Below are positions 1 to 30,820 of a stretch of 64,000 bases of DNA, in pieces. How positions within the stretch are numbered: position 1 is the first letter of the stretch; every line of letters begins with the position of its first letter. A model generated the notes under the pieces. It worked only from the letters and a program-made list of their open reading frames with translations. It did no database searches and was not told the origin of the DNA. The stretch lies in NCBI GenBank assembly GCA_965178125.1, contig OZ237754.1, positions 930,001 through 994,000 of the forward strand, in the 5' to 3' direction. The stretch comes from Bilabrum cf. latius (Eukaryota). A program made the position numbers and the translations under genes.

Positions 1-2175
1 AGGCTAAACAATGAACGCAAGCGCATATTTGCCGAATTCTTAGAGGATCACAAATTACCCAAGGATAGCATCAAGAAACTAGGATTTGCTTGTTTATACG
101 ATGGTAGCATTTAGGGTACTGCAAAACAAATTGGAATCGAGGATCTTCAAGAGCTCACTCACAGATGCAAACAAAACTACGATTTATTTGTTAAAGCCAA
201 ACGGGAGTTTGCTGAAATCATGCAGCATGTAAAACAAATAATGGGTTCTGATTGGGAGTTGTTACCTTGTAATCCCGGTAAAGAAAATACTGATAGAGCC
301 GATGTAGGCAAACTTTCAAGTTTCTTTCAGCACATTGAACGGTAGATAACCGAGCATATTGCTTTCATTCTGAATGGTAAGTTTAAGTGCAAGGTGGCTG
401 ATTATTAGTACGATGGCGTGTTTTTGCGTGATGTTTAGAGCAAAACGGTAAACACATGGATTCCAGCTATCGAACAGTTCATCTATGAAAAGACAGGTTT
501 CCGAGTAAAACTGGAAACAAAACGAATGGAAAACTATCAAGTGGATGCTATTTTAGAATCCGATCAAGAAGCACCTGTACCCAAAGAGGTTTAGGATTAC
601 TTGGATGAAAAAGAACAGCAGGTAATTAAGCATATTGAAAGTAACAATCCTTTTGATCCGTTCTTTCATAATTCGATGGATACAGAACGTGTTCCGATAA
701 AACTACATAGCATCATGGATTACAGTAAATTAAACAAGTTACGATAGTAGTATTTCGAGAACTTTTGTGTAAAGATAGAAAATCCTGCGATGTTTGTACG
801 TGTTTTTCCAGAATCAGGAGATGCTGTAACTATCAATCGCCAAAATCTGTTAGTTAGTTTTGAGAACTTACGGCATGGCAATAAAAACCAACCTTGGATT
901 ACCGAATGCTGGTTAAAATCAGCCTCTATCAAAACCTACACGAAAACTACGTTTGTACCATACACTATCAATCCGCCACCTAACCACATGGTAGAAAACA
1001 AATTCAACATGTTTAAGGGATTCATGCATTCAGTAACACCACCTGATAACTTCAAGATGGATCAAACCAAAATCCAGCCGATTCTAGATCACTTGCACGA
1101 TATTTGGTGTGGTGGTGATTAGATGTGTTACAAGTATATTCTTGATTGGATGGCATCGATTGCTCAAACACCATGGAAAAAATCCTTGGTGGCTGTTGTT
1201 TTGGTTTCAATCAGAGAGGGTGCAGGTAAGAATTCAATCATGGAGTTTTTGAAAGAACATGTGTTTGGCAATTAGTACATTCGTGATGTGAGTAACATTA
1301 ATGATTTAACCAGATAGTTTAACATGGACGGAATGAAAACCATCTTTACAGTTTGCAATGAGATTGGATCACAGGGTGGTGCTTACCGAAATGCAGATTC
1401 CTTAAAGGATATGATTACTCGCAAAACGCAGCGGATTGAAACCAAAGGAGTAGATCCAATTCAAATGAGCTGTTTTAATAATTTTATGCTCACATCACAG
1501 TATTGGAAATGGGTCGCCAAGATTTCCAGTAGTGATCGCAGGTACTTTTGTTTAGATGCAGATAACAAACGATGTAACGATGTTGATTATTTCACTAATC
1601 TGTTTAAGTTTTTAACTCCTGAATCAGGCAAACATTTTTGGTATTACCTGTTATCCCGTGATCTTTCAACAGTAAACCTAAGAAATATTCCAATGACTGA
1701 TTTAAAGCGTGATATGGCATCCTTGAGCTATGATCCATTCATTAAAACGCTGATTGAATTAGAAAATTAGAGAGTTGATGGAGAAGATCGATATACGGCT
1801 CAAGAGTTAATGCTGCTATACAATCATGTAAATGAAAAGGATAGCATAAAATCTACCAGATCGTTTAGTAAACAATTCAAGAAATGGAGCAACGATTTCT
1901 TTAAGGTTTGCTAGATTGGTAAAACACGAACTAGGGGGTTCTTAATTACACCCGAGGGCAACCTTGAATTGATCAGGTAGGTGTTAAAAGATCCTGTTTG
2001 GTATTTTCCTGATGCCCCTGAAAATGAATATGAAGAACTCGAGCCTAAATATGATGATAGAGAGGAATCCAAGCAATCAGAGCCTGTTACCGTTATGGTT
2101 AAACCTAAGATTCAGGTAAAATCTAAAGTTCGAAAAGTGTATTCTAAGCTACCAAAGGATATCTGTTTGATTTAA
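1..2175 (+). CDS. TVpol (PolA-like primase-polymerase) fused to a superfamily 3 (D5-like) helicase, 5' partial, >724 aa with TAG read as sense
   Basis: Frame +1 is open from base 1 to TAA 2173-2175 with 13 in-frame TAGs (112, 343, 406, 436, 592, 745, 748, 1120, 1273, 1315, 1768, 1912, 1978) and no TAA/TGA. PolA-like motifs KKLGFACLYDGS, LSSFFQHIE and YQYDGVFL. Helicase Walker A SIREGAGKN, Walker B TVCNE, motif C NNFMLTS, then SSDRRYF. Confidence 0.85.
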
Positions 2176-2210
2176 AAATCAAATAATATTTGATTTAGTT
2201 CAGAGGGATC

Positions 2211-2474
2211 GAACATTTTTGAACATTTGAGAACATTTTAATGTTCCTTACTTTGATACGGATTTTATTTGTTTTATATAGGGTAGAACATTAAGAACAT
2301 TTTTTAACTATATATATAAAAAAAAACGATTTCCACACATTTTTGATTTTCAAAAATGGTGAAAATAACGTTTTCTACAAATCAAACCCACCCTCAAAAA
2401 CGCTCATTTTTTTTACTTGATCATCGTAGGGAATTTCCGTACGAAATCCGAAGAACATTAAAATGAGCGTTTTT
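2211..2474. repeat. GAACATT direct repeats plus a 15-bp inverted repeat in the element's AT-rich spacer
   Basis: GAACATT at 2211, 2221, 2231, 2286, 2295 and 2453, with an inverted copy at 2240-2246. AAAAACGCTCATTTT (2396-2410) pairs with AAAATGAGCGTTTTT (2460-2474). Confidence 0.75.
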
Positions 2475-3010
2475 ACGAAATAGAAATAATGATCAGGCTT
2501 CTGATCTAAAATTCAAGGATGCAATCAATCAAGAATACGCCAAGGTAAAGCATATTGAATCCTAGAAGGAGTTTGCACTTGCAATCAAGGAATCCCCATA
2601 CAAATCTGCACTGTTTCGGGCGAGAAAAGCGGGTAAAGTAATATCAGAGGATCTTTACCTATGCATAAAGCAGATGGGATTCAAACAGAAAGGATTAAAT
2701 CATTAACCATTAAATTTTCACGCATTTTAAAACCCAAATATTTCCCTGTATGAGTACACAGAGAGCGTGATTTTAGCGAGTATCTCTGTATTAATTTAAA
2801 TGCACTTAATACGGAATAAATCTTAGAAATCATGAAATCGTTTGATCGTGGTTTGGGGGGAAAATTGATCCGTGTTCACCCTATTTGTCGAGGCATGGTA
2901 AGAGGGGGGATTCGTTTTCGGACAACAATAGGTTTTCTTTGCAAAAAGAGGACCTCTGAAAAGCATTCCTCTAAAAATTGATTTAGAGGTATCTGATCAA
3001 AGTAGATAAA

Positions 3011-4264
3011 ATGGAAGAAACACGAAAACTAACTGAATGGATTAGGGTGGGTTACTCGGGGTTGAGTTCGAAAACCATCAACAATAAGCTGGGCACGGCT
3101 CGTAACTCGATTGTGCCTTTCTTGGAGCAGCATGGTTTGAGCCTAGAGCACCCGATCCCCAAGGGTGCAGATGAGAAGCGGTACTACGAGCTGCTTCGAA
3201 CTTTCGCTGAAACGCGCCCAAGGAAATCCACATGCCCCACTAAGAGCACTAGCCACTCCCGGTAGGTGATAATCTAGAGGGAGGTGCAGAGCATGAGTTC
3301 GATCCTGAAGCAGTACATGGCAACTCACGGAGGATCGGATGAGCAGGTGCAGATGATGGGGATGGTGAGCAAGGTGAGTTATGATAAGGCAAAGGAGGCG
3401 AGTGTGGCAAAAAACACGGTACTCAAACCCGCACCGCCGATTTCCTTGAAGTTGGCAGTGGAGCGATTCGCAGCCAAATCGGTGGCGAGTGTGGATCAGC
3501 CGTGGATGTACTGCCTGATGTATGCTATCCTGCATGTAGCCCCCTTCCGAGCCAAGGTGCTGTAGGCAACCACGATCAATGGGGATGGCTTGAGTAACAT
3601 TAGCACTGCTGATAGGGTTTGGAACATTGCGGTGGGCACGGACAAGGGCAAGAGTTCGGGTGATAAGGAGGAGCGTGTGGTGACGATCTCGGCACGGATG
3701 GCGGAGTTGCTGGAACGGCACTACAAGGCAGGTGATCATTTGATTCCTCTCACGGTTAGCCACAAGAGGCGGGTGAAGGAGTTTGGAGCAACCATGAAGG
3801 GGATTAGTATGGCATTGGTGGGTGTGGAGGTGAGTGCATCGGTGTGGCGAGAGATAGCCTGTACCAATCACTACAACTAGCCCAGCCCCCTGACCGACGT
3901 GCAGTTGAAGCACGTGGCATCGATCATGGGGCATTCGGTAGGCACCTCGCTCACGTACAAATCGTACTCGATCGGTGCGGATTAGGTGATTCCGTGTGGG
4001 TTGCTGGCATCCCCCGAGCCAGAGCCCAAGCCCAAGCTCAAGCCCAAACTCAAGCCCAAGCTCAAGCTCAAGCTCAAGCTCAAGCTCAAGCTCAAGCTCA
4101 AGCCCAAGCCAGTGATTCGATTGAAGTCCAAGATCAAGCCAGTGATTCGATTGAAGCCAAAGGCGCAGCTGGTGGTGGGAACGGGTGCTGGTGTGCTGAG
4201 TGGGTTGAGTGAGGAGCAGATGCGTGTGGCACTGGCAGCCTTGAAGGCAATGAAAGCAATGTAA
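3011..4264 (+). CDS. Tyrosine recombinase/integrase, 417 aa, with a Lys-rich C-terminal tail
   Basis: Four track ORFs join in one frame through TAGs at 3263, 3275, 3563, 3878 and 3983, ending at TAA. Catalytic-type motifs occur in the expected order: APFR, TDKGK, SASVWR, VASIMGHSVGTSLTYKSY. Confidence 0.85.
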
Positions 4265-4394
4265 ACAAACTAAATGAATAAAACAAAACGAAGGGCCCTC
4301 ATCTATGGTAGTGATACCATGGGTGTTGTGCCCTTTTTTTTGGCCTCAGAATTTAGTATCTAACCGAATAAACGAAACATGCTCTAGAGATAAA

Positions 4395-4904
4395 TCACCC
4401 ATGGCGAGGGTGGGGGCAATCCACGAAGGTAGCCATCATATCTTTCTTCTGCAACTTTGCCCTGAACACAGCAATGGAGCAACTCTCCTTATCCTTCAAG
4501 AACTTCTACAACCGCCGAAACTAGGCTCGGGTTCGATCGCTCTTGATGAACTTGGGGAGCTCATCCATCTCGTACTTCTCTAGGGTGCGGTGATCCCGCA
4601 AGAAGGGCTTTAAATCCTGCCACTTGCTCCACGCCACCTCCTCCTCCTCGATCGGCGGCAACGCCCAAGTTACCCGCTTGGTGCCCTTGCGGCTCATCCA
4701 GAACCGCCGCCCCAACCCGAGCTCCTCCAGCAGCACCCGCCGCTCCTTTACATCCCGAGGCACTCCCTCCTGCTCACCCTCTTCCTGCACATCTCCCTCC
4801 AGCAAGAACCCCGTAGCATCACCATCCAACCAGTGGCGGATGGCAAGAGGGCACTTGAGAGGAGGCACAGGTGCAGGTCGAGCGCAGCAGCCCAAAAAAC
4901 ACAT
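4395..4904 (-). CDS. Hypothetical element protein (~169 aa; alternative start at 4943)
   Basis: Track ORF 4521-4943 extends through two TAGs to TGA at 4395-4397. Starts MCFLGCC. No recognisable domain. Confidence 0.5.
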
Positions 4905-4939
4905 CAGATCCCCAAACAGGAAAGGGGGCAGCGATGGGA

Positions 4940-5788
4940 TCATTCGAAGCCCCCCACCAGTTTTCCCGAGGTGGGATCACGGCGGCGGTGCTTCTTGGAT
5001 GGGCGCCCACGAGAGGGGGCGCGTTTGGGCTTGGGTGAATCTGGATCCACCACAGCCACCTCCTCATCGCTCTCACTCTCGACGATGGTGTGCTTGGGTT
5101 TGCGCTTCGTGGCACGCCCCCTTGATGGCTTGGGCTTGGGCTTGGGCTGCGGCTCCTCCTCTTCGGATTCCCCCACGATGTCGGGCACGAAATCCTCTGG
5201 GCGGCGGCTGCTGTTGCTGCGGTTGGATACCACAGAGAGGGCTAGATCGTCGATGGCAACCTTGATCTGATCCACACGGGGGTTCTTCACGGCCTTGACC
5301 ACCTCTTGGATGATGCGTAGTTGCTCCCGTAGCTTGGAGGCATCGCCCTTGTGGCGGGTAAGGGTGTGGTAATCTCCCTCGAGATCCTGCTTGTCGCTCT
5401 CGTTGAGGCTCATGCCCTTGATCTTGTCGGAGAACTTGGTGAGATCGTTGAGGTGCTCGGCGAACACATCCCTTCTTTGGAAGCGCTTAGCGATGGTTTT
5501 GATCTCCTTATCCCGATCGGTGAGGCGCTTGCGCATGCTGTCCTCCTCGTTGGCCATCATTTGCAGCAGCTGCAGCCGAATGGGTTTGGGCACAGCGAAC
5601 AGAGCTTGTCCCAGAAGGTGTAGTGCCTGATCCTTGATGTGTGCCATAGCCGATTCCTGCACACGTTGGAGAGTGGGCGCGAGCTTCTGGGCGAGCCAGA
5701 AGGCACCAGCAGCCATGGCGCTGATGCCCGAGGAGTTGAGCAGCGCGGGAAACCCCTCCCCAGAAACGAAGAGTGAAGCCACGTACAT
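4940..5788 (-). CDS. Hypothetical element protein (~282 aa): hydrophobic N-terminus, coiled coil, acidic/basic tail
   Basis: Long open frame ending at TGA. Heptad-like central region (LREQLRIIQEVVKAVK) and a PKPKPKP/KKHRRR tail. Start position uncertain. Confidence 0.6.
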   Translation of the reverse strand: MYVASLFVSGEGFPALLNSSGISAMAAGAFWLAQKLAPTLQRVQESAMAHIKDQALHLLGQALFAVPKPIRLQLLQMMANEEDSMRKRLTDRDKEIKTIAKRFQRRDVFAEHLNDLTKFSDKIKGMSLNESDKQDLEGDYHTLTRHKGDASKLREQLRIIQEVVKAVKNPRVDQIKVAIDDLALSVVSNRSNSSRRPEDFVPDIVGESEEEEPQPKPKPKPSRGRATKRKPKHTIVESESDEEVAVVDPDSPKPKRAPSRGRPSKKHRRRDPTSGKLVGGFE

Positions 5789-5928
5789 GCTGTGATGGAA
5801 GGTGGGAAAGGGTATGGATGGATAGATAACGAGCAAAAATTGTTGGGGCAGCCAAAGGTAGGAGAGCAAAGTAGGGGTGCGTGCAGCTCGATCTAGCCAT
5901 AGGGCGGCAGGATTGCACCATTCAAAAC

Positions 5929-6159
5929 TTACATGAAATTGATGATAGCTGAAACGCCTAGCCCGGCAGGCAGCATTTTGGCTCCATTGGGTATGAATCG
6001 GAGAAGCCAATACACCACGCTGCCGATCGAGGCAGTGCTCCATAGCGCCGTAACAACCCTTTCTTCATCGAGTAGTTCGGCGTACATGGGGGTAAAAGTC
6101 TGGAACATTGCAACTGGCCGCGGGGTATCCTCGAACTGGGTAACGCCGGTGCCGACCAT
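5929..6159 (-). CDS. Small putative membrane protein (~76 aa)
   Basis: ATG 6159 to TAA 5929. Two hydrophobic segments (VVTALWSTASIGSVVYWLL; MLPAGLGVSAIINFM). Confidence 0.45.
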   Translation of the reverse strand: MVGTGVTQFEDTPRPVAMFQTFTPMYAELLDEERVVTALWSTASIGSVVYWLLRFIPNGAKMLPAGLGVSAIINFM

Positions 6160-6177
6160 GCGAGAAATGGCGCGGGG

Positions 6178-6264
6178 GACAGGCGTGAGTCCGTTGCGAC
6201 AGGCGTGAATCCGTTGCGACAGGCTCGTATCGCAACCGAAATCTGGTTTTCTCATGCGACAGGC
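6178..6264. repeat. 20-bp tandem repeat between divergent element ORFs
   Basis: GACAGGCGTGA(G/A)TCCGTTGC at 6178 and 6198, a partial copy at 6218-6224, and TGCGACAGGC again at 6255-6264. Confidence 0.75.
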
Positions 6265-6339
6265 AGCAGTACCAAGGGACGGAGGCAACTTGCAGTATCC
6301 TTTCCCGCCTTTGTTTGAAAGATAATAGTGTAATAAAGC

Positions 6340-7089
6340 ATGGATGCAGCAGGCGATGGTGAGAAAGCAGTGGCAACAGCAGGGGATACCAGTGCAGTTG
6401 CTCTGCCTCCCAAGCACCCAGCAGGGGCTTCTAGCAAGAAGCAGCCATCCGCCGCCATCGGTGCACCAGTGGATAGTGGCACAGATAGTTACGATGAGTT
6501 TATCGGGCAGTTGCACCGCGGGATTTCACGCGAAGGAGCAGGAGAGGCGCCCACTGCCATGGCGCCAAGCAGAGCAGCGCAACCCTCGATTGAGGGGGGG
6601 CAGCCTTTAGCGGCAACCGCGGGGGAGGAATCAGCAAAGGAACATGCTTCTGAAGCAGATCCTTCGATCAGTGATCATGTTGCATTGCCCCGAGAGGCAG
6701 CAAGTGGAGCGGGGGCGGGCGCAGCTGCACTCGCTGCCTCACATCGATCTCGAGAGCGTGGCAAACCTAAGGTAAAGGTAACAAGGGCAAGGAGTAAGCG
6801 AGGTGCTGTATTACAATGGGGTTTCACTGAGGCGGTAATGATTGTGCATGCCCTGCGCTTCGGCTCTCCGATGGTGGACGGGTGGCTGCCAGAGCATGCG
6901 CCTGGCGATCAAACCATGGAGCCTGAATTGGATCGGAGGAGGATGCACAAGCAATTAGATCGGTTGCTTGATGGTTTGAACCTCTATATTGGCGAGGCAG
7001 CAGCGGTGCCTACCAGCGATCCCGCAGTGGTGGATGATCAGGAGATTCCAAATGCGATGGACGCAGAGAGCTTGGGTAGGATTGAATGA
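6340..7089 (+). CDS. Hypothetical element protein, 249 aa
   Basis: ATG to TGA open frame with an Ala-rich disordered N-half and a more ordered C-half. No recognisable domain. Confidence 0.5.
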   Translation: MDAAGDGEKAVATAGDTSAVALPPKHPAGASSKKQPSAAIGAPVDSGTDSYDEFIGQLHRGISREGAGEAPTAMAPSRAAQPSIEGGQPLAATAGEESAKEHASEADPSISDHVALPREAASGAGAGAAALAASHRSRERGKPKVKVTRARSKRGAVLQWGFTEAVMIVHALRFGSPMVDGWLPEHAPGDQTMEPELDRRRMHKQLDRLLDGLNLYIGEAAAVPTSDPAVVDDQEIPNAMDAESLGRIE

Positions 7090-7193
7090 ATGAACGAGCA
7101 GAATTTTGTTATCAATCCATCACTCGATCCGAAACCCTGCCAAGTACGACTGCCAATCAGCGAATCAGTGTGGCAGCACGGCGCCAAAGCCAA

Positions 7194-7616
7194 TCACAGC
7201 TCCTCAATGATGGCGGGGGGATCTTCCTCGCTTGGATCAGCAGCCATTCCCCAGCTGCGCTTTGGAACTTTAGGTACATCGCGCTTGATCACGGTACTGG
7301 GTTCCAGAACGGCGTTGAGGATGGCGGTAATGCACATCGGCTTGGGCTTTCGCGCGGGTAGCGTTTGCAGCCACAGCGAGAAGGTAGTTTCTCCGCCGAG
7401 CTCTTCGTACTTATCAACTAGATCTTGGTACGAATCAATGCCGTGGGTGTGCAGCGCCTTGAACAGCTTGCCCTTCATGCCTCCGCGTAGGCAATCGATT
7501 GCATTGAGCGGTGGCGGATCGCTTGTGCTGTACCGCTGCACCTTGGTAGCGAGTACCCCAGTGCATGCGAATGTTGAAGCGATCACAAGCAGGAAACTAA
7601 TGCCCCGAGAAATCAT
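7194..7616 (-). CDS. Possible BAF (barrier-to-autointegration factor)-like protein, 140 aa
   Basis: LFKALHTHGIDSYQDLVDKYEELGGETTFSLWLQTL resembles by eye the BAF pattern ([36 protein letters not shown]). Hydrophobic N-terminus. Not confirmed by any search. Confidence 0.4.
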   Translation of the reverse strand: MISRGISFLLVIASTFACTGVLATKVQRYSTSDPPPLNAIDCLRGGMKGKLFKALHTHGIDSYQDLVDKYEELGGETTFSLWLQTLPARKPKPMCITAILNAVLEPSTVIKRDVPKVPKRSWGMAADPSEEDPPAIIEEL

Positions 7617-7933
7617 TCTTGCTGATTAATTTGTGCGGTAAACGGCGGTGCGGGATGAGCGAACTCACAGAGAACCTTCCCCAGATCGGCGCTCCCCTCC
7701 CGCGTGGGGACCCCGCAGAATAATATGGAGACCCCCAAATTTCTCTCCTCTGCAAGAGGAATAGAACCCGAGATGTGAAACGTAGCAGTGTAACTCAGTG
7801 CGTAATTTTTGGCAGTTGAAAATTTCACCTGCAAAAAAAATGATTTTTCAGCAACTTAAATTTCCACCCTCTACCCGTTTTATGGAAAGAATTACTTATA
7901 ACAAAAGAAAAATGTACATAAAAAATACCCTAC

Positions 7934-7998
7934 TCTCACACACCACATACCAGGGGGACCTCCAATTTGGAGGTCCCCCTGGTATGTGGTGTGTGAGA
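7934..7998. repeat. 65-nt palindrome (two perfect 32-bp arms around a central T) at the element terminus
   Basis: TCTCACACACCACATACCAGGGGGACCTCCAA-T-TTGGAGGTCCCCCTGGTATGTGGTGTGTGAGA; every base pair was checked by hand. Confidence 0.97.
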
Positions 7999-9530
7999 CC
8001 AGGTCCGATCGCGCGGATGTTGCCAGCGCCCCAGCCAGTAGTCTTGACATAGACGGCTCCGTAGATATCAATGAAGGCAGGCACAATACCAATCTTGAAC
8101 TTGACTCGCCGGACGAAGGACTTAGGGATGATAGTCGAGGGCTGGATCTTGTTCAGCTCTTCGTCGTCTTTGGCTACCTGCACGTCAAGCCCTAGGAGGG
8201 CCCCTGCAAATAGGCTCACTGCGGTCACCGGATAGCAGAGGGGGAAGACGCCGGCACTGAATAGCTATGAGTGCAACTAAATGCGACGAAACGAACCGAT
8301 CTTCATGGGCAAAATGACTTAGCTCACGCTCCACAGACTCCAGCTTCCACCAGTTCAGCACCATTTCGAACTTCAAGTTGGCACCCAGGTAGGCGTAGCA
8401 GTTCTCGCATCTGACAAGGGTTCCAATCATGTACAAAGGATCTCCATTCACCGGTTCACGGTTGTATGTGTCGAAATTCCAATTGACCAATGACCAGTCG
8501 TGCACGTACCCAACAGTCAACCAGAGATCGAAGGACGTGACGGCTTCAGCGATCAATTCCGCGGTCGTCTTGATTTTGGCGATGACGGTGTTTGCGGTCT
8601 AGACAACTGACGTAACAGCATTAGCGACGGCCTTGAATGGGTTTCCCCAAAGCCTCCGACTTGCTCGTCCGGATGGCGTGTTGCGAAGTTTTTGGGATGC
8701 AAGCCCGAGCCGACGAGCAGCTTCATGGAAAGCCTCGGTGTCGTTACCCCGGAAAGCCTTTTGCATGCCGATGATTGCAGACTTGATTTCATCTGCAGCA
8801 ATAGCAAGGAAATTACGAGAATGGTAAATGCAATTGAAATTGAATAATGCGGCGCTGTGACGATTGTGAACTTCAAGCAAACCGCGCTGCAGCAGCCAGC
8901 CTGCCGGCAACGCGTTGGCAACGAAGGGCTTTTCTTACTCTCATACAGTCCCGGTGTCCTGGAGACATGAGCACGCATGTTGCTGAAACAGCTCTCGAAA
9001 GTTGTTGGCCTTGCTCGAACGGTCAGTGCTGGAGTACCGTTGGAATCGGTGTCGTACTCGAGCCATGGACGGTCGACTACCTCGAAGTAGAACGGAGCCA
9101 CGTCTCCTTTCCCATTGACGCACCCCCATTGTTCAGATCCCACAATAATTGAACCAATAAACAGGCGCTTCTCGAGCTGGGAGGCGCTGGGACCGAGGAT
9201 TGTGATCTCGTGCTTCGCGGAACACGAAACCGAGATGACCTTTGGCCACTCGTCAAGGACCTCCACGTGATGCTGCACCGTGGCATCATAAGTAAGACGC
9301 ACATTTCCTCCGAATGCGTCGACCTTGTCCATGTTGTAGACGAATCTGTTGCCGTGGGCGAGGTGCTCCTTTACTGGCGGGAGAGGGTGCTCGAACAAGC
9401 TCGACGCAGGGTCACCCGACGGTAATGCAGCTGCGATATGGCAGTAACACAAACAAACAATAGCGATAGCCGAGACAGCGATCGCATGTGGCATGGAAAC
9501 CACCAAGAATATGGATGTTTCACCTGCCAT
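7999..9530 (-). pseudogene. Host secreted-protein gene, 5' part, interrupted by the element
   Basis: Signal peptide (MPHAIAVSAIAIVCLCYCHIAAA), GT-AG introns at about 8793-8938 and 8219-8327, one in-frame TAG (8599) and a CENCYAY motif. The reading frame runs (..GNIRAIGPG) straight into the palindrome without a natural stop. Confidence 0.65.
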
Positions 9531-11093
9531 GCTCGAGGTTCCGACTCGGAGCGAGCACCAGTTGCTGCCCCCAGGGTGGGGCCAGGATCATCATGCGCAA
9601 TCACTTGTCACGCGGCGTCCGGCAGCTTCCGCGCAAACCGGTGCGCTTACCTGCTTCTTCAGTTGCCGCCCGCCCTCCTGAATCCATTAGTAATACGACT
9701 ATTATAACTTTCGACACCCGAGAGGACTGTTCTGGCCGAGGCAGTCTTGATTCGGACCGATCAGTCACCTCACGAGTTGCGACCACCAGTCGCAATTGCA
9801 CCTAACACCAACACAAAGCACGCATTCACCACTACTCCACAATGTACAGTTGAGAGCCGACATACGCACGATTCGCTTGCGCTTATCCGTGATTTAAGGT
9901 GATGTATGGCCTATGACCGGCCCAGAATGCCACAGCCTGAGGTTTGTTCGGCCGGTTTTCTGCTTTGGGTGTTAGTAGCACCGGCACCTACTTATTGCAT
10001 CGGCAGCACAACCATGCATCGCTATGCTATAAGCGCGGCACCATTATGCAACACGTTGGCCAGTCCCTGATCAGACCTGGACCTCTACCACGCGCCCATC
10101 GACACATTGGCCAAACTTGGTCAGTCTCTGGCCTGGCGTATTGCCCAAACACTCATGGGTGCCCCCAACTCGTATCTTAAAAGCCATTGACCAAATTTTC
10201 TAGTAGACGCGAGCGTAGACCTCGTGTTGTGTCCTGCAGGGCAGCTCCGAAGCTCGAGCTGCGAAGAGGACAGTGCCGCGCGTACATGAAGCATTGCTAT
10301 GAGGACCATTTCGCTGCCCTAGTACCAGACCTGCCCCCACCCCCCTTTTCTCACCCCATATATATCCGACCCATTGATCCTCGTACTGCCGAGCTCTTTC
10401 TTGTGTGGTGCCGTCCTGCCACGTCTACCAGTGTGCCAGATAGGACACCCGTCGCCTGCCAGCATCCACTTTTGCACTTCAACTTTCTGCCCTTCACACT
10501 GCCTGGCACCTGGCTTGTTCCTGCAACCATCAATACCCAGGCTCAAGCCCCCGCTGAGCAGTATCTCCGCATTCCTTTCCCACTGGCAGCCTAACGCCGT
10601 GGGCCAACGGCCACTTCCCTTTCACGCCCTCAAGGCCCTGAGTCGAGGGCACAGGCCCCGCCCAGTGTCCAGCGAGCCAATTCGGTCACTGAGACATCGT
10701 GCCCATCCTAGCAACCCGCTAGATAAAGCGCACAGCGCGGCGCCGAACACTCCCACCTCCTCCCCCCCCAACTGGCAGCGCTCCCTTCTCCTTCAAGCCT
10801 CAGCCTAGAGTCCCGTGGTCTCAGCAGTGGCGGCGGTGTGGTCAGAGATGGGATGCGTGAATGGCATCTCATAGAATCCCATGGATTTTATCATCGGTCT
10901 TGGTGTGGTCGCACTGGCATTTGAAAGGCAGACAATCTCAACGGACATCTGTTGCGCGGCGACGGCCGTGCCGGGCGATGCTGCGTAGTTCCGCAAAACC
11001 GCTGGAGCTTGCGGGTGCTCATTTGGGCATTCAACCAATAGGCCACTGCCCTTGCGTTGCATATAGCTGCACATAAAGGTGTACAAAGAAGGA

Positions 11094-14868: not shown

Positions 14869-17800
14869 TCAGACGTACAGCTCATCCCTGCAAAGAACAT
14901 ACCCCTGCAGCTCCTTTGCGACCGTACCGTTGCCCTGCTCCTGCGCAGACAGGAATCGCCCAAGCCGAGGTAGGACCCTCCGCATCGCAGCACCAGAGCG
15001 CGGCAAGCCCAACTGCTCCGCGACAGCGGCCCAAAGACCCTCCCACGGCATGGATGGAATCATCCGTCCGGCATGGATATTACTAGTCCCAGCCTCGCTC
15101 AAATCAGCGGGATACCGCCCCAGGATCCGCCCCCCGCGCACGGACCCGCCCAGCACCGCCGCGTGCCCGCCCCAGCCGTGGTCCGTCCCGTGCCCGCTCG
15201 GCCGCAGCCGCCTGCCGAACTCGGACAGCTGGACGATGGTAGTGTTAGACCACACGCCCTACAGCTTCAGTTCCTGCTGGAAGCTATCCAGCGCCGTGTT
15301 GATCTTCCCCTGCATGCCGTACTGCGTGTCGGTGTAATCACTGTGCGAGTCAAACCCCGGGACCGTCACGACGAACATGTCTCTCGTGGCGCCGCGGATG
15401 TGACGAGTGCTGATAGTCTGCGCCACCTGCCGTAGCTGGCGGGCGGCCTCGTTGTCACCGACGTGGAACCATTGCTGCAGGGACCCGGCCTGCAGATCCT
15501 TCGCAAGGGCGCCCTGCCGATCCACGGCTCCAGGCGCCCGTGCAGGCCACACCGAAGTGGCCAGGGACCCGGAGGGTACTCGGTATAGATCCATCACAGG
15601 AACGTGGGTCATGGTGTCGCGGGGGTCTAGGTTCCTGACCCCGATACGTGGCTCGAGCACGTCAGCCACTGCAGCGCCGGTCGTGCCCGTTGCGGTGTCG
15701 CCCCGGAGTGCGTATGGCGCGCCACTTGCCGAGAACAGGTGGACCCCTTTCTGGCCCTGGGCGATCAATTCACGCTACAAGCGCGCGAGAACGCCTGTAT
15801 CGGTGTGTCCCACCCTGTGGGCTGCGCGCATCTGGGGCCCGTGCTCCAGCAAGCCGTCAGGGAATGTGTCCGTGCCGTTCATCGCGTCTGCCTTGCCGAC
15901 AGGAGTGACAAGGCTGCCGATGTTTGCAATGAAGGCAGTGTCATTCTGCTCGTACAGCTGCTTGAGCAGCGGCATGGTCAGGTGCACGCCAAACCGGTTG
16001 CATGGCTGCGTCCCGTTTGGCACGTCGATCCCGAGAAGGTGGCCCGAGTGCATGCCCGCGCTGCCCCTGAGGCTCTGGTACTGCCCCAGCCGATCTACAC
16101 CTCCCTTGCACTCGTCCAAAGGCACTATCATGTTCCACGAGTCGTGGCCACCGGCCAGCACAAGCATGATGAGCGCCTGGTAGTCGTCGCCTGCATTGCC
16201 GCCTCGAGTCCTGACGGGGCTGGCGCTTGGCGGGGCTCGGCTGGCGGGCCTGTGCTTGGCGCCGACGGCATGGAAGGCGGGTGAGCTGGCCGCCATGTAC
16301 ATGACAGCGGACCTCACGTCCTGCTCGTTGCGATTAGGGTCTCGTCGGATGCTTTGCAGGGTGCTCTCGATGGCTTTCTTCGTGTCGTTGCTCATGCGGC
16401 CGCCTGTTAGCAGCACATCAGCTCGGTCTACCAGCTACCCCACGGTGGAGTGCTCGTCACCCAGTGCACTGCTCAGGTTCAGGTAGCCGGCACGAAGGTC
16501 CGCTGGTGGCACCGATCCGCTCGCAAGTGCGTCGCAGTCCGCTGGCCCTCTGCCGCTGCCAAGCCCACCATCGCAAGGCAGCAGGCCGCTGGTCGTCAGC
16601 CCGAGCACCGCGTTCTGGTACCCCACCATTGTGGCGTCGGTCAGGCGCTCTGCTCCCGGCAATACGACGTCGGGTGGATCCATCAACACGGTCCAGTCGG
16701 CAGATCGGCTGACGTCCTGCACTGGGCGCACGAGGTCTTGGATGTCCGGCTGCTCGTACACACCCTGTCCCAGCTGCGGGCTCACGGGACCCAGCTCCAC
16801 CATGGCACCGTTCTCCGTGGTAAGCTGACCTGCCCGCATGATTTGCATCGTCTTCACCAGCGGGTCCTTGAGTCTTCCGTGCATGGGGTCCATTTCCAGC
16901 TCGGGGCTCAGCGCCTCGGGGTCCAGCAGCACGGCCGCGATGGTGGCACCGAGGTCAGCCCTCTCCCCCGTGCCCCTGCCCCTGTAGCTCCCATCGGCCG
17001 CGGCCTGCGCAACTCGCTGCACGTACGCTGCGGATGGGTTCGCGGTGACGAGAGATCGGATGAAGAACAGAGCCAGATGCTGGGGCGTGTTAGCGTGCCT
17101 GACCAGCGTGTCGGCAGTGGCTCCAAGCTCGCCGTGAATGTCAGCTGCTGTGGGCGAGTGCAGGCTCACCACCTGTGGTGGGTTGCGAAAGGAGTGCAAC
17201 GGGGTGCCTGCATCGTCTACAATTGACACGCTGGCCCGCTGGTTGAACAAAAACCGCGTGCGCCCACCCAGCCTGGCGCGAAAGATGGTCTGCGCATCGA
17301 GAGCCAGTCCACTCCCCCCCCCGCTGCCGCCCAAACCGGGGCTGCTACTATCACGGTGAATCCACACCGTGGCGCCTGTCCGGTTCTAAAGGGCATCGCA
17401 TTCTGGCGCAGCACACTGCATATACACCCCCGGGCCGTACACCGCGGGGTCGCGCGCGCCGACTTTGAGGGCATGCTCCATCTCACTCAGAGTGACCGGC
17501 AAGGCGGCTGTGAACACCGGCTCGGTGCCGATGCGGGCATTGCACAGCACAGAGCCGTCATCGAGCCTGGTGCACGGCTCGGCCGAAGTGCCGTAGTCCG
17601 ATGCGACAGGATAGCTGCCGTTGGTCCACTTCACCCTGAAGCCGTACAGGCTGCTCGTTGTGGAGACCCTAGCGTCTCTCTGGCTGCGGAATGGCTCGTG
17701 CATGTCGTGCACGGCCTGAACTCTGCCGTCCGGAAACACGCGCACCTGCGCGGCACACTACCGCGTGCCCCATATCCGAGTCGTGCTCACGCTCCCGCAG

Positions 17801-20800
17801 GCAAAGCGAGGGTACGTGTTCTCGCACACCTCGCTGCCCCTGCTCGCGCACTGCTGCACCGCCGTCGCCATCGACACCAGCTGTCCCTCATGCGCCACAC
17901 AGGGGACTTCCGCCTCCCACGTCCGGCTTGCCTCGCTGCAGCAGCTGGCGGCGGCAGCGGGCAGCCGCTCGTCTACGCACATGGCATCGGTGCTCCAGAG
18001 AGTGGTGGGCAATCCGCGCCCGTCCTCCACGAAGGCCAGCTCCGCGCAGGGCAGGCGCTCATACCGGAAGTAGGCCGGGGGAACACCGCTATTTCCTCTG
18101 TTTACCTGCACCACTCGCACGGTGTCGACGGAGCAGTCTGCCCCGCGGCACGGCAGCGTTTTATTCAGCCTCACTGTTGCACGCATAGTCCCTATGCAGC
18201 TCGCATACGGCCCTGGCATCCCGCACAGCGCAGCGTGGAGAGGAGACCCCGTGTCGTCCAGCACCAACGGCTCCACGCCGCTCCGGTGCCTGTCCAGCTC
18301 TGCCTCCTAGCGCGATATGTAGTGGTAGGCGGCACCTGCCTCCAGAAAGGCCTGGGTGCCTAGGTGCTCGCAACGAGGCAGATAGTCCCCCACGTGACCG
18401 GCGCCGCCTGGACTCATCTTTGGCCTGGCGTCGTGCGCGTCTGCAACACCCTGGGGCACGTGCAGCGGGTCAATAGCGTTCACGGTGGCGCTTGCCCTCG
18501 ACGCCTCGATGTTGCCTCTCATGGGGCTCGTTGCCAGGCCCGTCCACGCCCCGCTCAGGTCCTCTACGTCTGCCTGCGTCCACGCGGGGGTGGGCAGGCT
18601 CGCATCGTCCAGTACCAGCGTGCCGTTCATGTGCAACAGGTGCCGCCCCGCGGTGAAGCGCTGCAGGGCTGCACGCGCCATGGTCTCGTCTGGGTACAGC
18701 TCTCGCTTGGGGAAGATCTCAGTGTGGTAATGGATCGATCTGTCGTTGGTGTACCCCATGGCTTCGCCGACCATGGGCGAGTGGAACACCTCGTGCAGCA
18801 GCTCTCGCAGTGGGCCGAGCCCCCTTCGCACCAGTATATCCCAGTAGGCAGCGAACGCCTCGGCCTCGCCAGACCGCCCAGTGTTCTCCACTGTGACTCC
18901 GACGAGCTGTGCGAGGGCCATGGCAACCCGCTGTCGCAGCTGGTCGGGCGCATGGAGCACCGCGTTGGCCCACACGTTATCCCTCGTTGCATCTCCCTGC
19001 ATGCCCTCCGAGTGCACGTCGAGGCTCAGACGCTCCACATCGCTGTTTCCATCCACTGAGAAGGTGTACCGATGCCCTGCCTCCGGGTCGTTGGACTCCT
19101 CCCCCGGTGACCCGCACGCCCTCACGACCTCGTGGCAGTCTATTTCGTCCATACCATCGTTATGGTTGCCCACGATATCCGGGTGCTGCAGTTCGAGGGG
19201 CAGTTCATCCACCCGCAGTGTCTGGCCCATACGGCCGATGCTAGACAAGGCGTCTCGCTTCTGGTTCCAGTACCCGATGGGATGTCCTGCCGTTGGGTAC
19301 GTGATGCTAGTCTGCTCCCTGCGGACAGCAGCGGCCAGCGGCGGTTCCTTGTGCGACGACCACACCTACCAGGCGTGCTCCGACCCAAAGGCCGTGAAGT
19401 CAAATACCTGACCCTCGTCAGGATGCACGTGATCGAAGCAGTGCACCTTCGGGGAGGCGGTGACAGTGCTGTTTGCACTCGAAGTCGAGTTCGTCACTGA
19501 TCCTGCCGTGGAATTGACTGGCATGATTTCGCTGTACACCACGTTGATACGCACACCCCGGTTGGCCCACACGCAGCTTACGTCCTTGGCGTCTATTACA
19601 TCAGCGCCATCATCCGCCTCTATGATTGCTGCAGAGTACAGTGCGTGCGCCTGCTCGTCGATCTGAACCGACCCTGGCTCCGAGGCATCTTCACAGGCCT
19701 ACCTCTGCACTCGCTTGAACCGGGCCACAGGCTAGTGGCAAAGCACCGGCATCTAGTACATGGGTAAATCCAGTATTTGGAACACTTGCCGCCCCGTCAG
19801 TTCCTGTATCTTCAGGATGAAGCTCTCATTTATGTGCACGGTGCGCCCAGCGCCAGCGGTCCTCCTTGTGACCCTGCTGCACGACGGAAGCAGGCGGCAC
19901 GTATCGGCATTGAAAGGCAAACGTGGCACATGGGAGCATGTTTGCGCATCTATACCAGAGCATGGGTTCTCCAAGGTGTTGCTCGCCAGCCGGAGTCTGC
20001 CCTGGTGCTGCAGCCACATGGTTCTGTTGGTGCCCAGGATGGAAGCCAGGGCGAATGCGGGCCCCGGTGCTCGGCTCTCGCACGATCCCGCAGGCTGGCC
20101 GATGGTGCTCGCTCCAACGAGCACGTAGCTGTCTTTGGCAGGAGCAGCCACCGGTTTCATCTATACCTGGGATGCGTCGATCGCTTGGCGTGCAGATTCC
20201 GCGACGCTACTAGTGCCGTTGGAAGCCTAGGACTGGGAGCAGAGGCTGCTGGTGGCATTTGCGGCGGCACTTCCTGCATTGGCGGCACTTCCATTTGACA
20301 TGAGGCAGCTGCCATGGGCTGGACCGTCGTGCTACGACCTCGCTTCCGCATCGAGCTACACCTGTTGCAGCGGCATGTGCCCGGCAGGAATGGCTTCGGT
20401 GGGGAACTGCACCGCCGGGTTTGTCCATGCAAAGATGCAACCGGAGGCAGGCGAGCGGTATGTGACGAGCCCACCCACCTCTTCCTCGACCTCGCATACG
20501 TGCCAGGGGCCACTGCCGGACCCGGGGGCGGGAGTGAAGCTCTGGCCGACAAAGGTGCGCGGGTGGCCTCCCACCAGAAGGGTCCCATTGACGACCCTGA
20601 ACTCGCTGCCCCTGTCCAGCTCGTGGATGGAAAAGCTGACCCAGCGAGAGCCTACGTCGCACGAACTGAAGGGCTTGCCGGGGGTGCTGCCCAGCCTAGC
20701 CCGCGGATTGGCGTTGCTGCGATAGTGGGCCCTGTGCAGCGTCGGGGACATGGCCACCTGCTCCCAGTACCAGCTTTCCGCTGCCCTGCTGAAACTGCCC

Positions 20801-22893
20801 GTCGCGCTCCCGATCGTCCCAGCGCTGGGCTCGGCACGAACAGCGCTTTCGGCAGACTCGATCGAGGTGTCACTGGATGCTGTGCCTGGGTCGGCTGGCA
20901 TTCCCGTGCTGCCCACGTCCTTGCCTCTGCCTGCCATGGCCTGGATCTCACGCCATGTGCCCCCATACGCAGCCTGTTCGAGTAGCCTGGCCGCCCTTGC
21001 CTCTGGACCGAGATCCCTAGGTAAAATGCTGTGCACGAGTCGGTACTGGGGGCGGCACGGGCGGGTGCGAGTCACGCTTACGTTCTGCAGGCACATCGTG
21101 CCGTTGTTTGACGCAAGAGCTTCATCAGTGCCGTTGGTAGCCACGCTGCCGTTCCTGGGCACGGCGCTGTCACTGGTACCGTTGTTTGCGCCAGAGTCCG
21201 TCGCATTGGCACTGGAACCATGCGCCTCTTCCGGCTCGACACTTCCATTGCATCGCACGAGCCTCTGCTCCACCGCGGTTTCCTCCGCGGCGGTCTCGGG
21301 GAACAGCGGCTCACAGTGCACTGCACTTCCAGCGAGGCCGAACTCATGCAGCGGCCTGCAATCGAACTCGATGTTGCAGGGCGTAACCCCCGGCGTCCAA
21401 CGGGTGCCGCCGTAGGACCTGCCGCAGTGCAGCTTGCTGGAGGGAGGCGCGAGCGCAGCTGGCGGGGCGCTCAGGACAGACGAGAGGTCTGCTTCCACGT
21501 GATAGCTCGTGTAGTTTCTGCCGAGCTATGCCCCCGTCTCGCCCTTGCTTGCGGGGGAACACGCGTTCTCTGATTGCGAGTCCATCACCAGGAAGCTGAT
21601 CATGCCTTGAGGTGCCAGCGCCAGAACCGGCCGGTCGAATGCCAGCTCCCCTTGGAAATCCGCTGGCACTGCCACCACGGCTGGAGACGACGTGGGCGTC
21701 ATGGACGGGGTGATGGAGGGCGTAGGGGTGGCGCTGGGGGTGGTAGAGGGCGTGGGCGTGCTGCTGGTGGATGGGGTCTGGGTCGGGCTCGTTGTCACCG
21801 ATGGTGTGCTGGAGGATGTCGAGCTCGTTGAGGGAGACGTTGAGGACGTTGGAGAGCTGGTGCCTGTCGAAGATGGTGTCGCGCTGATGGAGGGCGTGAT
21901 GGATGGTGAGGGTGTGCCGCTGGGGGTAAATGAAGGCGATGGGCTGGTGCTGGGGGTAGTCGACGGCGAGGGCGAGGACGAGGGCAGGGGGGGCGGCTCG
22001 CTCTCCCGTACCTCATCACGTGCGATCAGGTCAAGATTCAGTCCATTCGCACTCGTCACACCTTGCAGGGTCCCATTGCCGGCCTACCGCATGGCATTGA
22101 CGAGTCGCCCGATGCGCACCGTGTCCAGCAGGTTGGTCTCGACCGCGCTATGCAGGTCGACTTCGTCCCGATCGGGCAGGTATTCCCGGTCTATTTGCAG
22201 GCGAAAGTAGAAGGTTATGGTCAGTTCAGCCTCCATTCCCAGTCCCAGCTCCTGTTCCTGTTCCTGTATCTGGCGCCGCCCCACAAGGTGCAACGAGCCC
22301 TCTGCTCTTCGGGGCGGCGCAAACGAATCGCCGCCTTGCTCTTGCGACATCATAATCATGTTGTACACGGTGCACGAATCCGCGGGAAGGTCCCCAGCCT
22401 GCTCGAGACCCGCGCAGAAATCAGCCGCCATGTCTGTATGGACACCCGCTGCGGTTTCGTAGGCACCGTCGAGTACGCTCGCCGGATCCCGCAGGGACAG
22501 CTAGATGCTGCCGTTGAAAGCAGTATTTGACACTCTAGTGAACTCAGTCGCGTCGCCATCGTTCCCCAAGTCAAGTGGCCAACCAATGGTGAACTGCAAC
22601 GCGACCAGAACTGCTCCTGCGACCAAGCAGGCCGCGACGCAGCAGCACAGGCAGGCCGCGATGCGCTCACATTGGCAGCAGGCAACACACGTGCAATACG
22701 GATCGTCTGCATCCTCCACATGCCTCATGTTTGCTGCGGGGGCTGGGTCCGTCGGATTGCGATGGCTTCGGTCATTGCCAGAAGTTGGCCCCCGTCTGCG
22801 AGGCATGGGATTTTCTCCCTCAAACTCAAGTCTGCCAGCAACAGCACCTTGAGTTGTCCTTGCCCTCGCGCCTGCATTACCTTGTTGGGGCAT
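14869..22893 (-). CDS. Giant membrane-anchored DUF1800 + DUF1501-type fusion protein (~2,670 aa, apparently intronless)
   Basis: Thirteen track ORFs share one frame and are separated only by TAGs (>15), ending at TGA 14869. N-terminal Cys-rich TM segment and S/T/P stalk. DUF1800-like motifs (ARLLEQAAYG, APDQLRQRVAMAL, HGRLKDP) and DUF1501-like motifs (LAGGHDSWN, GFDSH, SEFGRRL...GTDHGWGG). Confidence 0.85.
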
Positions 22894-25152
22894 GATGCTG
22901 CGTTGTGAGGGTGACTGTCGCTGGAAAAGTCGTTGGCTGCCTGGTTATGGTCCGGCAAAACGATTCTATGCAGCGGCCCGGGGCGGACGCGCTGTCAAAG
23001 GCGAGGAGGAAGCATTTGCTCACTTTGACTCCTTACTAATAGAGTGGTTTGACTTGATTGTCTATCGCGAGTTTGTAGTAGAGATAGGCTACAGTCTGTT
23101 TCCAATTGATTGCTTTGTGTTGGTCGTGCTGGAAGCCACAACCGTGCCGGCTTGACCACCGTCCGTTGTCGTCACACCGCCAGTTGTGTCAAGTGCTACT
23201 GTCCTTGGCCCAGCCAATTAGTGGCATCTGAATGGATCGCAATGCGACCGTGCGAGTGACACAAATATGTGTAGAACAGAGAATGGCGAGTGCGAAGAAA
23301 AATATCTGTTCACATCTCATCCGCAATGCTATGCTGCATCCACTGGCAGAGGCGCGTAGCTCTGTGCTCGCAAAACAGCTCGAGCAACTGCTCCGTGCTC
23401 GCCCACTCCCAAGCATGGGAGCCATTCAAGTGTGCTGGCTGTCTTGCTGCATGCGCATTGCCGCCAATCGCTGTCAAATCGTAGTCGGGTCGTCGTCGTT
23501 GTAGGTACCGTGCACGGCGGGGGGGGATGAAGGGAGAATATCGAAGGGGTCAGGTCAGGTAGAGGGCGCGAGCCGGGCAACTGCCTCGATGCTCGCGCCG
23601 GTCCTTCCATCGCCCGCTAATCCACCTACCCACCTACCGATCGTGCTGTTGTTGTCGTTGTTGCGCTTCGTGGTTTGACCGAGAGGGCGAGCCGAGCCAG
23701 TGCTTCCTCAAGGGACGGAGGGATGGACGGACAACCGAGCCGCCTGGTTGCATCGTCCATGCCAAGCACTTGCACTCTTGCTCTCTGCGCGCTCTGGCTG
23801 GCCTTGCTCCATGCCGGAACACTGCCTCTGCCGCTGCCACGGTCAGTCGTAGGGGGGTCGAAGGTCGGGGTGAGGGGGGAGAGTTGAGGTGTGCGTCCGG
23901 GGGCCGGCATTTCGATAGTCTAGAGCTCCGGTGCGGCTGCCGCGGCTGCTGCTGCCGTCCTGTTGGTGCAATGCATGGTCTGCCCAACCTCTTGTGCGCG
24001 ATGAAGGGGATGGTTGGCAAACGCACGCACCTGTTAGCACAGTAGCAGCAGCAGCGCAGGTGCATCGCGGGGAGTTCAAGCATCGAGGGCCGGCCAACCG
24101 CCGCCGCGTCGTGTGTTCTCTCAGAAAAAAACAGCCGGCACCAATGCAGCGCACTGAAGCTGTTACAGTGCGCTGCACCGTGGACCGCCTGGGCCGCTGG
24201 GCCGAAACCGGCGGACTGCCGCAGGCTTGAGCCGGACTGGAGAACAAAACGCGGCTCGGGCGCCGTGTTGGACATCGAAGGAGGGGTGGGTAGGAACGGG
24301 GCCGCGAGCGTCGCATCAGCCGGCCCGCGGACGGGAGACGGAGCATCGCACTGCGCGGCGAGGGGCTTCAGTGTGCCCCTGGCTCGCGATGGTGGATGCT
24401 GCTGTGCTCCCGCCCACGGGCGACTAGCGGCGCCCACGGCCCCGCCTGGGTGAATTGCTGCTGGTCACAACGCAGGCCCGGCAGTCATCTCACACCCATG
24501 CAATAGAGCATGGGGCGTGGTGGGGACGAGCAGCTGCTCTGAAACCAAGCAGCATATGGAGGCACTGCGAAATTTGGCTCGTAACTAGATGCGCAAGCAC
24601 CCGCCAGAATGTGATGGCAGGTGCCCCGTTGCAAGCCAGGAATGTCGAAGTGCCATCCAAACCCAAACGACTCAGAAAAAGCGGGTCGTCCGTCGGCCAT
24701 TTGTAGAAGAATCAGGGCCGCCTCCGATGCTGTCAGCATCATCCGATACAACTGCTCCCATAGATAGGGAAACACGTCGCGACAATGACGTGGTGGCACC
24801 TGCCGATGAGATGCATGCCATGGGGCCAACGCCCAAAGCCGATTTATCTGAGCTCTGGACCAAGAGCGAATGCGAGGCTAGCCTGAACATGGGCAGCCCG
24901 CTTGCAGCCGCACGGCAAGACAATCCAGCCACAGCACCCATCCTACGCATGCACCGGCTCATTGAGCGTCGCGCAACATTAATTCGAGGCATCATCATAC
25001 TTTGGCTCGACTAGTTGAGCAGCAATTTTAAGCCGATTGAGTTGACGATGTATATCAGATTCGTTTTAGCAACACGCAACAAACGTGCGCCCGGCATTCG
25101 GTCCATTTCTAAGCTCGAGAACGATACCAAAATGCAATAGGCAGCCGGATTT

Positions 25153-29307: not shown

Positions 29308-29342
<35 letters not shown>

Positions 29343-29703: not shown

Positions 29704-29734
<31 letters not shown>

Positions 29735-30018: not shown

Positions 30019-30057
<39 letters not shown>

Positions 30058-30646: not shown

Positions 30647-30820
30647 GGTTTAATGGGAAATGCTTCTATTGCCGGCGTTTCCCTTTGCTTTCCTCAATCT
30701 GGTTTTCACGATTGCCCCCGCATTCTACACCCAACAATAATTCAAAAATGGACTCTATCGGCAACTGTATCAATATTAGCGGCAGTCCTCGAATTCCACG
30801 GAGGTGTATCCCATTCAGTT

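Follow-up and report, generated by a model that had tools for sequence, protein, structure and literature searches.

Background

Parvoviral genomes end in terminal hairpins, which appear as full duplex palindromes in extended and integrated forms and which take part in rolling-hairpin replication. For small eukaryotic DNA elements that have no protein-primed polymerase, the way in which the ends are copied and the chromosome is entered has yet to be settled. Only a preprint of July 2026 by Haro et al. offered terminal palindromes as the answer, and it did so without experiments (10.64898/2026.07.28.741278). The endogenous virophages and PLVs of Halocafeteria seosinensis described there have palindromes at their extremities, beside target duplications (the one in the subtype drawn measures 52 nt), and the palindromes favour elements with D5 primase-helicase or PolA-S3H over those with protein-primed PolB (10.64898/2026.07.28.741278). 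The authors propose hairpin-primed replication, and function is unproven there as well. A second related system is the provirus of Ectocarpus, in which, according to the part of the report available, a telRL site is surrounded by viral DNA, with the attachment sites at other positions (Nat Microbiol 2026, PMC13236599).

Here, we analyzed a window of 64,000 nucleotides (the whole stretch of DNA under study), at the left of which a virus- or plasmid-like element, with at least 8 kb visible, abuts a chromosomal gene through a 65-bp perfect palindrome. The palindrome is a functional-looking terminal one and a variant of the recently described terminal-palindrome type; probably, it enables the end of the element to form a hairpin that is used in copying or joining. 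The reading that we favour, with a probability of roughly 0.45, is that of a terminal fold-back palindrome through which a linear form would have its ends both replicated and joined. The window was compared with four public runs (X1, X5, X7 and X8), at least 10 runs from four studies being listed, and all four were used as contigs. X1 is a run of organism A, which is possibly where the window comes from, and X5 a run of organism B from another study, while X7 and X8 are runs guessed to be RNA. The features of the element and its junction are as follows.

1-2175, plus strand: D5-type SF3 helicase (DUF5906) replication protein, C-terminal 724 codons; full form, P0001
2176-3010: intergenic spacer of 27-40% GC, with GAACAT repeats, a TATATATA run and an inverted repeat
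3011-4264, plus strand: recombinase-like ORF of 417 codons with 5 in-frame TAG, so named from motifs and a weak PHROG match
4366-6161, minus strand: GC-rich gene with a GT..AG intron (5790-5932), spliced in X7 and X8 contigs; no family match
6283-7101, plus strand: GC-rich gene (ORF 6340-7089), covered by X7 and X8 contigs; no family match
7095-7622, minus strand: GC-rich gene (ORF 7194-7616), covered by X7 and X8 contigs; no family match
7706-7933: AT-rich subterminal segment of the element, delimited by the GC profile and run contigs
7934-7998: 65-bp perfect palindrome with which the element ends; found in X1 contig 5 and in X5 contigs 12, 13 and 14
7999-8003: CCAGG directly after the palindrome; the X5 insertion has CCTGG here
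8001-9587, minus strand: flanking chromosomal gene, with a signal-peptide-like start near 9540 and exons to about 8001

Results

Structure and uniqueness of the palindrome

An exact reverse-complement check confirmed the perfect 32-bp arms around a single T that had been noticed in the initial annotation of the locus: the 32-nt segment 7934-7965 is the exact reverse complement of 7967-7998, with T7966 between them (32+1+32, 65 nt), and the symmetry extends to 37 nt (7929-8003) when two mismatches are allowed. The arm sequence is found at two places only in the 64-kb window, with no further copy at up to three mismatches, and none was expected (100 shuffles). Among the 11 hairpin-type inverted repeats of the window (arms at most 60 nt apart) the 65-mer is by far the longest, the runner-up among perfect inverted repeats having 15-nt arms. 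Folded as single-stranded DNA, the segment 7690-8010 reaches a predicted -66.5 kcal/mol (z -10.3), which none of 100 shuffles equalled. The AT-rich tract reported ahead of the palindrome is real: the GC fraction is 0.41 at 7701-7900 and 0.385 at 7801-8000, and the approximately 230 bases preceding the palindrome have 38-41% GC versus 53-58% on either neighbouring side. A search for the palindrome in IMG/VR and the JGI metagenomes gave no matches.

Two explanations of such a structure as a familiar repeat were rejected. A dispersed host palindromic repeat that served as the insertion target is contradicted by the single copy in 64 kb (at up to three mismatches) and by the contig depth over the palindrome, which equals that of the element. 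Helitron ends belong to elements with a Rep/helicase gene (HUH and SF1) and have a CTRR 3' end 10-12 bp past a short hairpin; at this locus the helicase is of the D5/SF3 type, there is no CTRR, and the palindrome reaches the last 0-2 bases of the element.

Second copy and outer edge of the element

In X5, the element is represented by positions 1-7444 and 7706-8000, with nine of nine matched contigs at 99% identity or more and no contig cover at 7445-7705, and the depth is zero across 8001-10800. The left-flank contig of this run stops at 7963; a contig of 61 nt (contig 13, 7936-7996) spans the palindrome centre; and contig 14 starts at 7969, agrees with the window up to 8000 and then passes into unrelated sequence, a loose end whose first letters are TGG. 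This is the layout expected for left flank, arm, loop, arm and right flank. The alternative flank is known from one contig of depth 2, and its sequence is absent from the 64-kb window. Since the palindrome has the same outer edge beside two flanks, the whole of it belongs to the mobile unit and ends it: the palindrome is the final sequence of a mobile element and travels with it. Position 8000 is the last one that the element shares with X5, and from 8001 onward the two flanks are different, as expected if, as initially claimed, the palindrome lies exactly at the junction of element and host. The copy in organism B thus answers the check for the palindrome in another copy, and none of the cases that had been named as refuting (a palindrome that is absent from other copies, internal in them or a fold-back artefact) was encountered in X5. 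An assembly fold-back artefact was rejected because the centre is crossed by a contig from an independent data set.

The same comparison bears on whether the palindrome could be a functionless scar, that is, a one-time hairpin or fold-back repair product formed at integration, similar to long P-nucleotides. Opened hairpins do leave palindromes at junctions, but a single event of this kind would not be expected to recur in another organism as an identical 65-mer that stops at an identical outer edge beside a different flank, nor to leave both arms perfectly conserved, and we regard the scar as barely credible. The presence of the element at 99% identity or more in two differently labelled organisms, of which organism B has the element yet not the window flank (8001-10800), points to recent horizontal spread.

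The contigs of X1 cover the window except for gaps such as 8001-8006. In this run, the contig depth drops from 239 (7601-8000) to 112 (8001-8400), a roughly twofold excess of the element over its flank. Two sequence variants coexist in this run at 1768-1816, one of which matches the gene for P0001 on a separate 12,257-bp contig; taken together with the twofold abundance, they show that the element is multicopy and mobile, with a second copy on the 12,257-bp contig. The letters at 1768-1816 that are specific to the window copy have a depth of 54.7, versus 113 for the flank. The X1 left-flank contig passes through the arm to 7965. On the chromosomal side, X1 contig 6 ends exactly at 8007 and alone accounts for the bin depth of 111.7 (394 x 113.4 / 400); positions 8001-8006 have no X1 contig, so the window's own junction is without independent X1 cover, and such contig gaps prove nothing.

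The initial annotation placed host coding sequence immediately after the palindrome. This is supported by a minus-strand frame that stays open from 8264 into the palindrome and by the next upstream exon (8185-8934), for which a homologue, P0011, exists in another assembly (47% identical); the claim is less secure for the last exon, for which a homologue search found none. The flanking gene is absent from X5, and its X1 depth is about half that of the element. To the right of this gene, a second context of low depth (~9 vs ~100) joins the intergenic position 10069 in X1 and may represent a structural variant or a minor strain.

These data also address the case in which the palindrome is the real end of a free linear element that was joined to the sequence from 8001 onward, and likewise to the X5 flank, during library preparation or assembly. 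Such a chimeric join would agree with the depth of only 2 for the other X5 flank, with the presence of the element on its own 12,257-bp contig, and with a window that begins inside the element, as contigs breaking in repeats do. It would leave unexplained the CCWGG shared by the two flanks (agreement at four of five positions has a chance of ~0.016, calculated post hoc with n=2), the chromosomal frame that is open into the junction as for an insertion into an exon, and the depth of the window-copy variant, which is that of a hemizygous insertion (54.7 vs 113 for the flank). A join made in the laboratory or in silico is therefore very improbable.

The pentamer at the two junctions (CCAGG in the window, CCTGG in X5; n=2 junctions) also occurs once in each arm (7951 and 7977); at the junctions it may have served as the target or as the core of a recombination, or may have arisen by a short duplication. 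At the inner border of the subterminal segment, both X1 and X5 have a contig that enters 7706 from a different, AT-rich context. This might mark where a left inverted repeat stops on its inner side, or else belong to a second structural variant. The contig depths show no doubling of the kind given by a terminal inverted repeat (215 vs 156-196 in X1; 5.2-6 vs 4-6 in X5). A nested insertion, in which the GC-rich region 3000-7700 would be the insert and the AT-rich context at 7706 would show the empty site, was not supported, since the first 22 letters of this context are found nowhere in the window at up to three mismatches.

Replication gene and spacer

The window begins inside the replication gene, whose frame (1-2175) has TAG at 13 codons and is free of TAA and TGA. 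It matches DUF5906, a D5-type SF3 NTPase (E 2e-12), and the same part of the protein matches PHROG 'DNA primase' families (E 1e-16). The full form, P0001, has 863 aa, is 99% identical and is encoded on the 12,257-bp contig. Among the matches to phage records listed (10 of 209), residues ~376-790 alone were aligned; for residues 1 to ~375 there was no match in Pfam, NCBIfam or PDB, nor among these listed phage matches. The proposed TVpol/SF3 protein is thus upheld in its D5-type SF3 part, which alone is detectable, and its polymerase part is putative. An AlphaFold model of P0001 has a pLDDT of 35, and searches of IMG/VR and the JGI metagenomes returned no confirmed match. Family searches of the visible 8 kb found no protein-primed polymerase (PolB) and, in 1-8000, no capsid module (capsid proteins, packaging ATPase); no HUH nickase was found among the visible genes of the element.

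Behind the replication gene, the spacer contains GAACAT five times in direct and once in inverted orientation (2211-2300), the TATATATA run and a perfect 15-nt inverted repeat (2396-2410 and 2460-2474). The segment 2408-2510 is repeated, with 11 differences and one gap, about 500 bases upstream of position 1, before the helicase gene. By its composition, the part 2176-2520 looks origin- or promoter-like.

Recombinase-like ORF

A tyrosine recombinase had been assumed for the element; its assignment to the ORF at 3011-4264 is weak, coming from the spacing of motifs and a PHROG match. The motifs FRAKVL, VWREI and GHSVGTSLTY, recognized by eye, have a recombinase-like spacing, which we take to be similar to the one in the integrase of phage lambda; HxxR lacks its histidine. 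The best PHROG match, which is weak and the sole profile match, is to phrog_1 (integrase; E 0.15, 12.3 bits) in the C-terminal half. Searches against all PDB chains (phmmer and a profile of three sequences) returned nothing at E of up to 1 or up to 10, and neither did Pfam and NCBIfam at E of up to 10; at the level of sequence, homology to TelN, TelK or ResT was accordingly not seen in PDB, Pfam or NCBIfam. The AlphaFold model has a pLDDT of 36. When 1.84 billion representatives were searched with HMMER, just two short fragments were retrieved, P0009 and P0010 (70% and 75% identical), each of which terminates exactly at one of the in-frame TAG codons of the window ORF. The gene family therefore exists elsewhere with conserved TAG codons, and the two fragments are, judged by their sequences, a diverged copy that was split by a standard-code gene call. 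A word-based search and IMG/VR gave nothing for this ORF, and an exact look-up of five predicted proteins of the element in a protein collection found none of the five. The lysine/proline/leucine-rich tail of the predicted protein is encoded by an AAGCTC/AAGCCC microsatellite together with a 30-nt tandem unit (4011-4153). The contigs of all runs break at this microsatellite.

GC-rich genes, genetic code and other features of the window

Between the recombinase-like ORF and the subterminal segment, the otherwise AT-rich element carries the three GC-rich genes (4366-7622), which are covered by X7 and X8 contigs at depths of ~19-156; the intron 5790-5932 is removed in the contigs of both runs. 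The existence of a paralogue or an alternative form follows from one contig of the X7/X8 type, which departs from the window at 7177. The region 1-3600 and the palindrome are without X7 or X8 contig cover, which carries no weight either way.

Where the element has a TAG codon, its homologues have polar residues (E, N, K, Q, D, S, H). A mismatch of genetic code between element and host was considered and rejected, as host genes likewise read through TAG in the following frames.

31546-39129: host frame with TAG as sense
14869-22944, minus strand: host frame with TAG as sense
51095-56278: host frame with TAG as sense
others: further host frames with TAG as sense

The host DNA polymerase epsilon occupies a single frame of 2527 codons (31546-39129) with two in-frame TAG; homology to Pol2 (solved chains) is found before the first TAG and between both, and Pfam DUF1744 follows the second. 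A DUF1800/DUF1501 host protein has 2691 codons, of which 17 are TAG, and neither of these two frames contains TAA or TGA. Since host nuclear genes read TAG as sense, the use of this codon in the element gives no indication of foreign coding. Elsewhere in the window, a very long serine/glycine/threonine-rich frame (26351-30649, minus strand) has tandem repeats of ~25 residues (…TSPSSESETSGETDGAG…) and is mucin-like; the region has 68% GC and an extreme AT skew.

Possible roles of the palindrome

In their 'extended' form, the hairpin termini of parvoviruses, whose initiator has an SF3 helicase domain, are full duplex palindromes at the genome end. The palindromic duplex end found here has the look of such an unfolded, copied hairpin terminus, as in parvoviruses and in the preprint model, and the 65-mer is for this reason read as a terminal fold-back repeat. 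Under this reading, the element would be replicated by its own D5-type SF3 helicase protein without a protein-primed polymerase, and the integrated copy would present the fold-back end in its unfolded duplex form. In the linear form, either strand of the end could snap back into a 32-bp hairpin, which would prime or complete end replication in rolling-hairpin style; the adjoining AT-rich tract, being easily melted, may be the place where the helicase is loaded. The outer edge of the palindrome would be the point of joining to chromosomal DNA at CCWGG-like sites. We infer that the hairpin forms in vivo and that the palindrome acts in replication, and the joining enzyme would be either the product of the recombinase-like ORF or an integrase encoded in the left part outside the window.

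The evidence that favours a fold-back end comprises the perfection and uniqueness of the palindrome, its position at the end of the mobile unit, and an SF3 helicase with no PolB in the visible 8 kb. Against it count that no HUH nickase, as rolling-hairpin replication needs, was found and that the depths are undoubled. Tyrosine-recombinase chemistry, to our knowledge, leaves no 3'-OH for priming, and a 3' end ...GAGACC would carry two unpaired bases when snapped back if the CC belongs to the element.

The helicase gene and the AT tract could also be accommodated by a circular form, with no hairpin ends, in which the palindrome is a recombination site, a replication origin or both. The palindrome would bind the recombinase-like protein, or an SF3 double hexamer with melting of the AT tract, and crossover would take place at the outer edge with CCWGG-like sites. 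Origins used by SF3 helicases, for example the SV40 core origin, classically have a palindrome beside an AT tract. The end is 3.7 kb away from the recombinase-like ORF, which neighbours the helicase gene, CCWGG is common to both flanks as a crossover core would be, and the contig depths fit one palindrome per element copy. The arrangement matches the PLV 'end module', for which inverted repeats were proposed as recombinase substrate and origin (PMC11296320), and PLVs with tyrosine recombinases are thought to circularise before integration (PMC12220804), as far as the available parts of these two reports describe them. However, no circular junction was seen in the contigs, and the recombinase assignment is weak (E 0.15; nothing in Pfam, NCBIfam or PDB). 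Moreover, tyrosine-recombinase core sites consist of inverted half-sites of 11-13 bp around a spacer of 6-8 bp, unlike the 32-bp arms around one base found here, and a crossover at the centre would leave one arm per junction. We consider the circular form an unlikely, if serious, alternative.

The initial annotation instead envisaged a linear duplex with closed hairpin ends, in which the palindrome is the replicated-telomere target of the recombinase-like protein acting as a protelomerase. Protelomerases do use tyrosine-recombinase chemistry, and the size and perfect two-fold symmetry of the palindrome resemble those of the N15 telRL (56 bp). The X1 left-flank contig that ends at 7965 is what a graph without a second exit would give, although this is an observation only. 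The integrated virus of Ectocarpus, in the available part of its description, has a tyrosine recombinase, a telRL-like palindrome and sense-antisense reads (PMC13236599). Nevertheless, telRL is internal in N15 and, according to the same source, in the Ectocarpus provirus, whereas the right side of the palindrome is non-element in two contexts here; a closed-hairpin genome ends at the dyad, so that its duplex map would contain just one arm; instead of an even 6-bp core there is a single central base pair; and the ORF at 3011-4264 is without similarity to solved chains at E of up to 10. Protelomerase resolution at this site is decidedly unlikely.

A palindrome that folds back at the end of a linear form thus remains our preferred reading. 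Its fullest version would be a small linear protist replicon with hairpin ends, a D5-type helicase and a divergent tyrosine-recombinase-like end processing, which joins CCWGG chromosomal sites and moves between organisms near-unchanged (at least 99% identity) together with spliced, expressed cell-type genes; this composite picture is tentative and, as a whole, doubtful.

Discussion

The element offers a compact test case, having a 65-bp terminal palindrome with a defined edge, two contexts with CCWGG and at least two copies in one culture; the near-identical copies in two differently labelled organisms add to its value. If the hairpin ends are true, SF3-helicase replicons of protists would be tied to the end handling of parvoviruses, poxviruses and telomere phages. 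If the element is indeed a linear replicon, it would be a eukaryotic counterpart of the telomere phages at plasmid size and would provide the first experimentally tractable hairpin-based end replication in the virophage/PLV world. If there are no hairpin ends, the palindrome would be an unusual attachment site for a recombinase beyond current profiles.

Comparison with known systems

The terminal palindrome and the SF3 helicase in the replication protein are shared with parvoviruses. These are, however, small ssDNA viruses with a fusion of HUH nickase and helicase, whereas the present element has no HUH domain, comprises at least 8 kb of dsDNA and carries spliced genes. Folded hairpins are also the substrates of tyrosine recombinases at integron attC and CTX-phage attP sites, where crossover at the stem base leaves a palindrome at the end of the integrated unit. 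Both sites are bacterial, and the choice of strand depends on extrahelical bases in their imperfect hairpins, whereas the palindrome described here is perfect.

The 'end module' of PLVs resembles the locus in having a helicase gene, a recombinase-like gene and an inverted repeat at the genome end (Virus Evol 2024, PMC11296320). Its repeats, as given in the available part of that work, are hundreds of bases long and separated, and its recombinases are recognisable, which differs from the situation here (PMC11296320).

With the telRL systems of N15 (TelN) and of the phaeovirus provirus EVEc in Ectocarpus, the element has in common a perfect palindrome of ~56-65 bp, genes of the tyrosine-recombinase type (putative in the window) and hairpin ends as the proposed outcome (PMC13236599). 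In the portion of that report available, the N15 and EVEc sites are internal with an even 6-bp core, while the palindrome in the window is terminal and odd-centred and is accompanied by no detectable protelomerase homologue (PMC13236599). A telRL site of the N15 or Ectocarpus type was rejected for this locus, the palindrome being terminal with a non-element right side. A full duplex palindrome against foreign DNA, which the N15 and phaeovirus telRL sites do not have, better fits the model of terminal palindromes and fold-back priming.

The Halocafeteria elements come closest. As in these, a palindrome (65 nt here vs 52 nt there) stands at the integrated extremity, directly against the chromosome, and the replication gene is not of the protein-primed kind (DUF5906/D5-type in the visible 8 kb; 10.64898/2026.07.28.741278). 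The Halocafeteria palindromes differ, in the preprint sections available, in lying inside terminal inverted repeats at both ends of elements with rve integrases; one end is visible in the window, where a recombinase-like ORF is present and an rve integrase and capsid genes were not seen in the visible part (10.64898/2026.07.28.741278). As capsid genes were not found in 1-8000, the element is no more than a candidate member of the virophage/PLV group. Among the literature on virophage terminal palindromes and polinton hairpin telomeres that our search reached, such a description was found only in this preprint. The unusual replication and integration system initially suggested for the locus is consequently less unprecedented than it was taken to be, as a model of this kind already exists for virophages and PLVs (10.64898/2026.07.28.741278).
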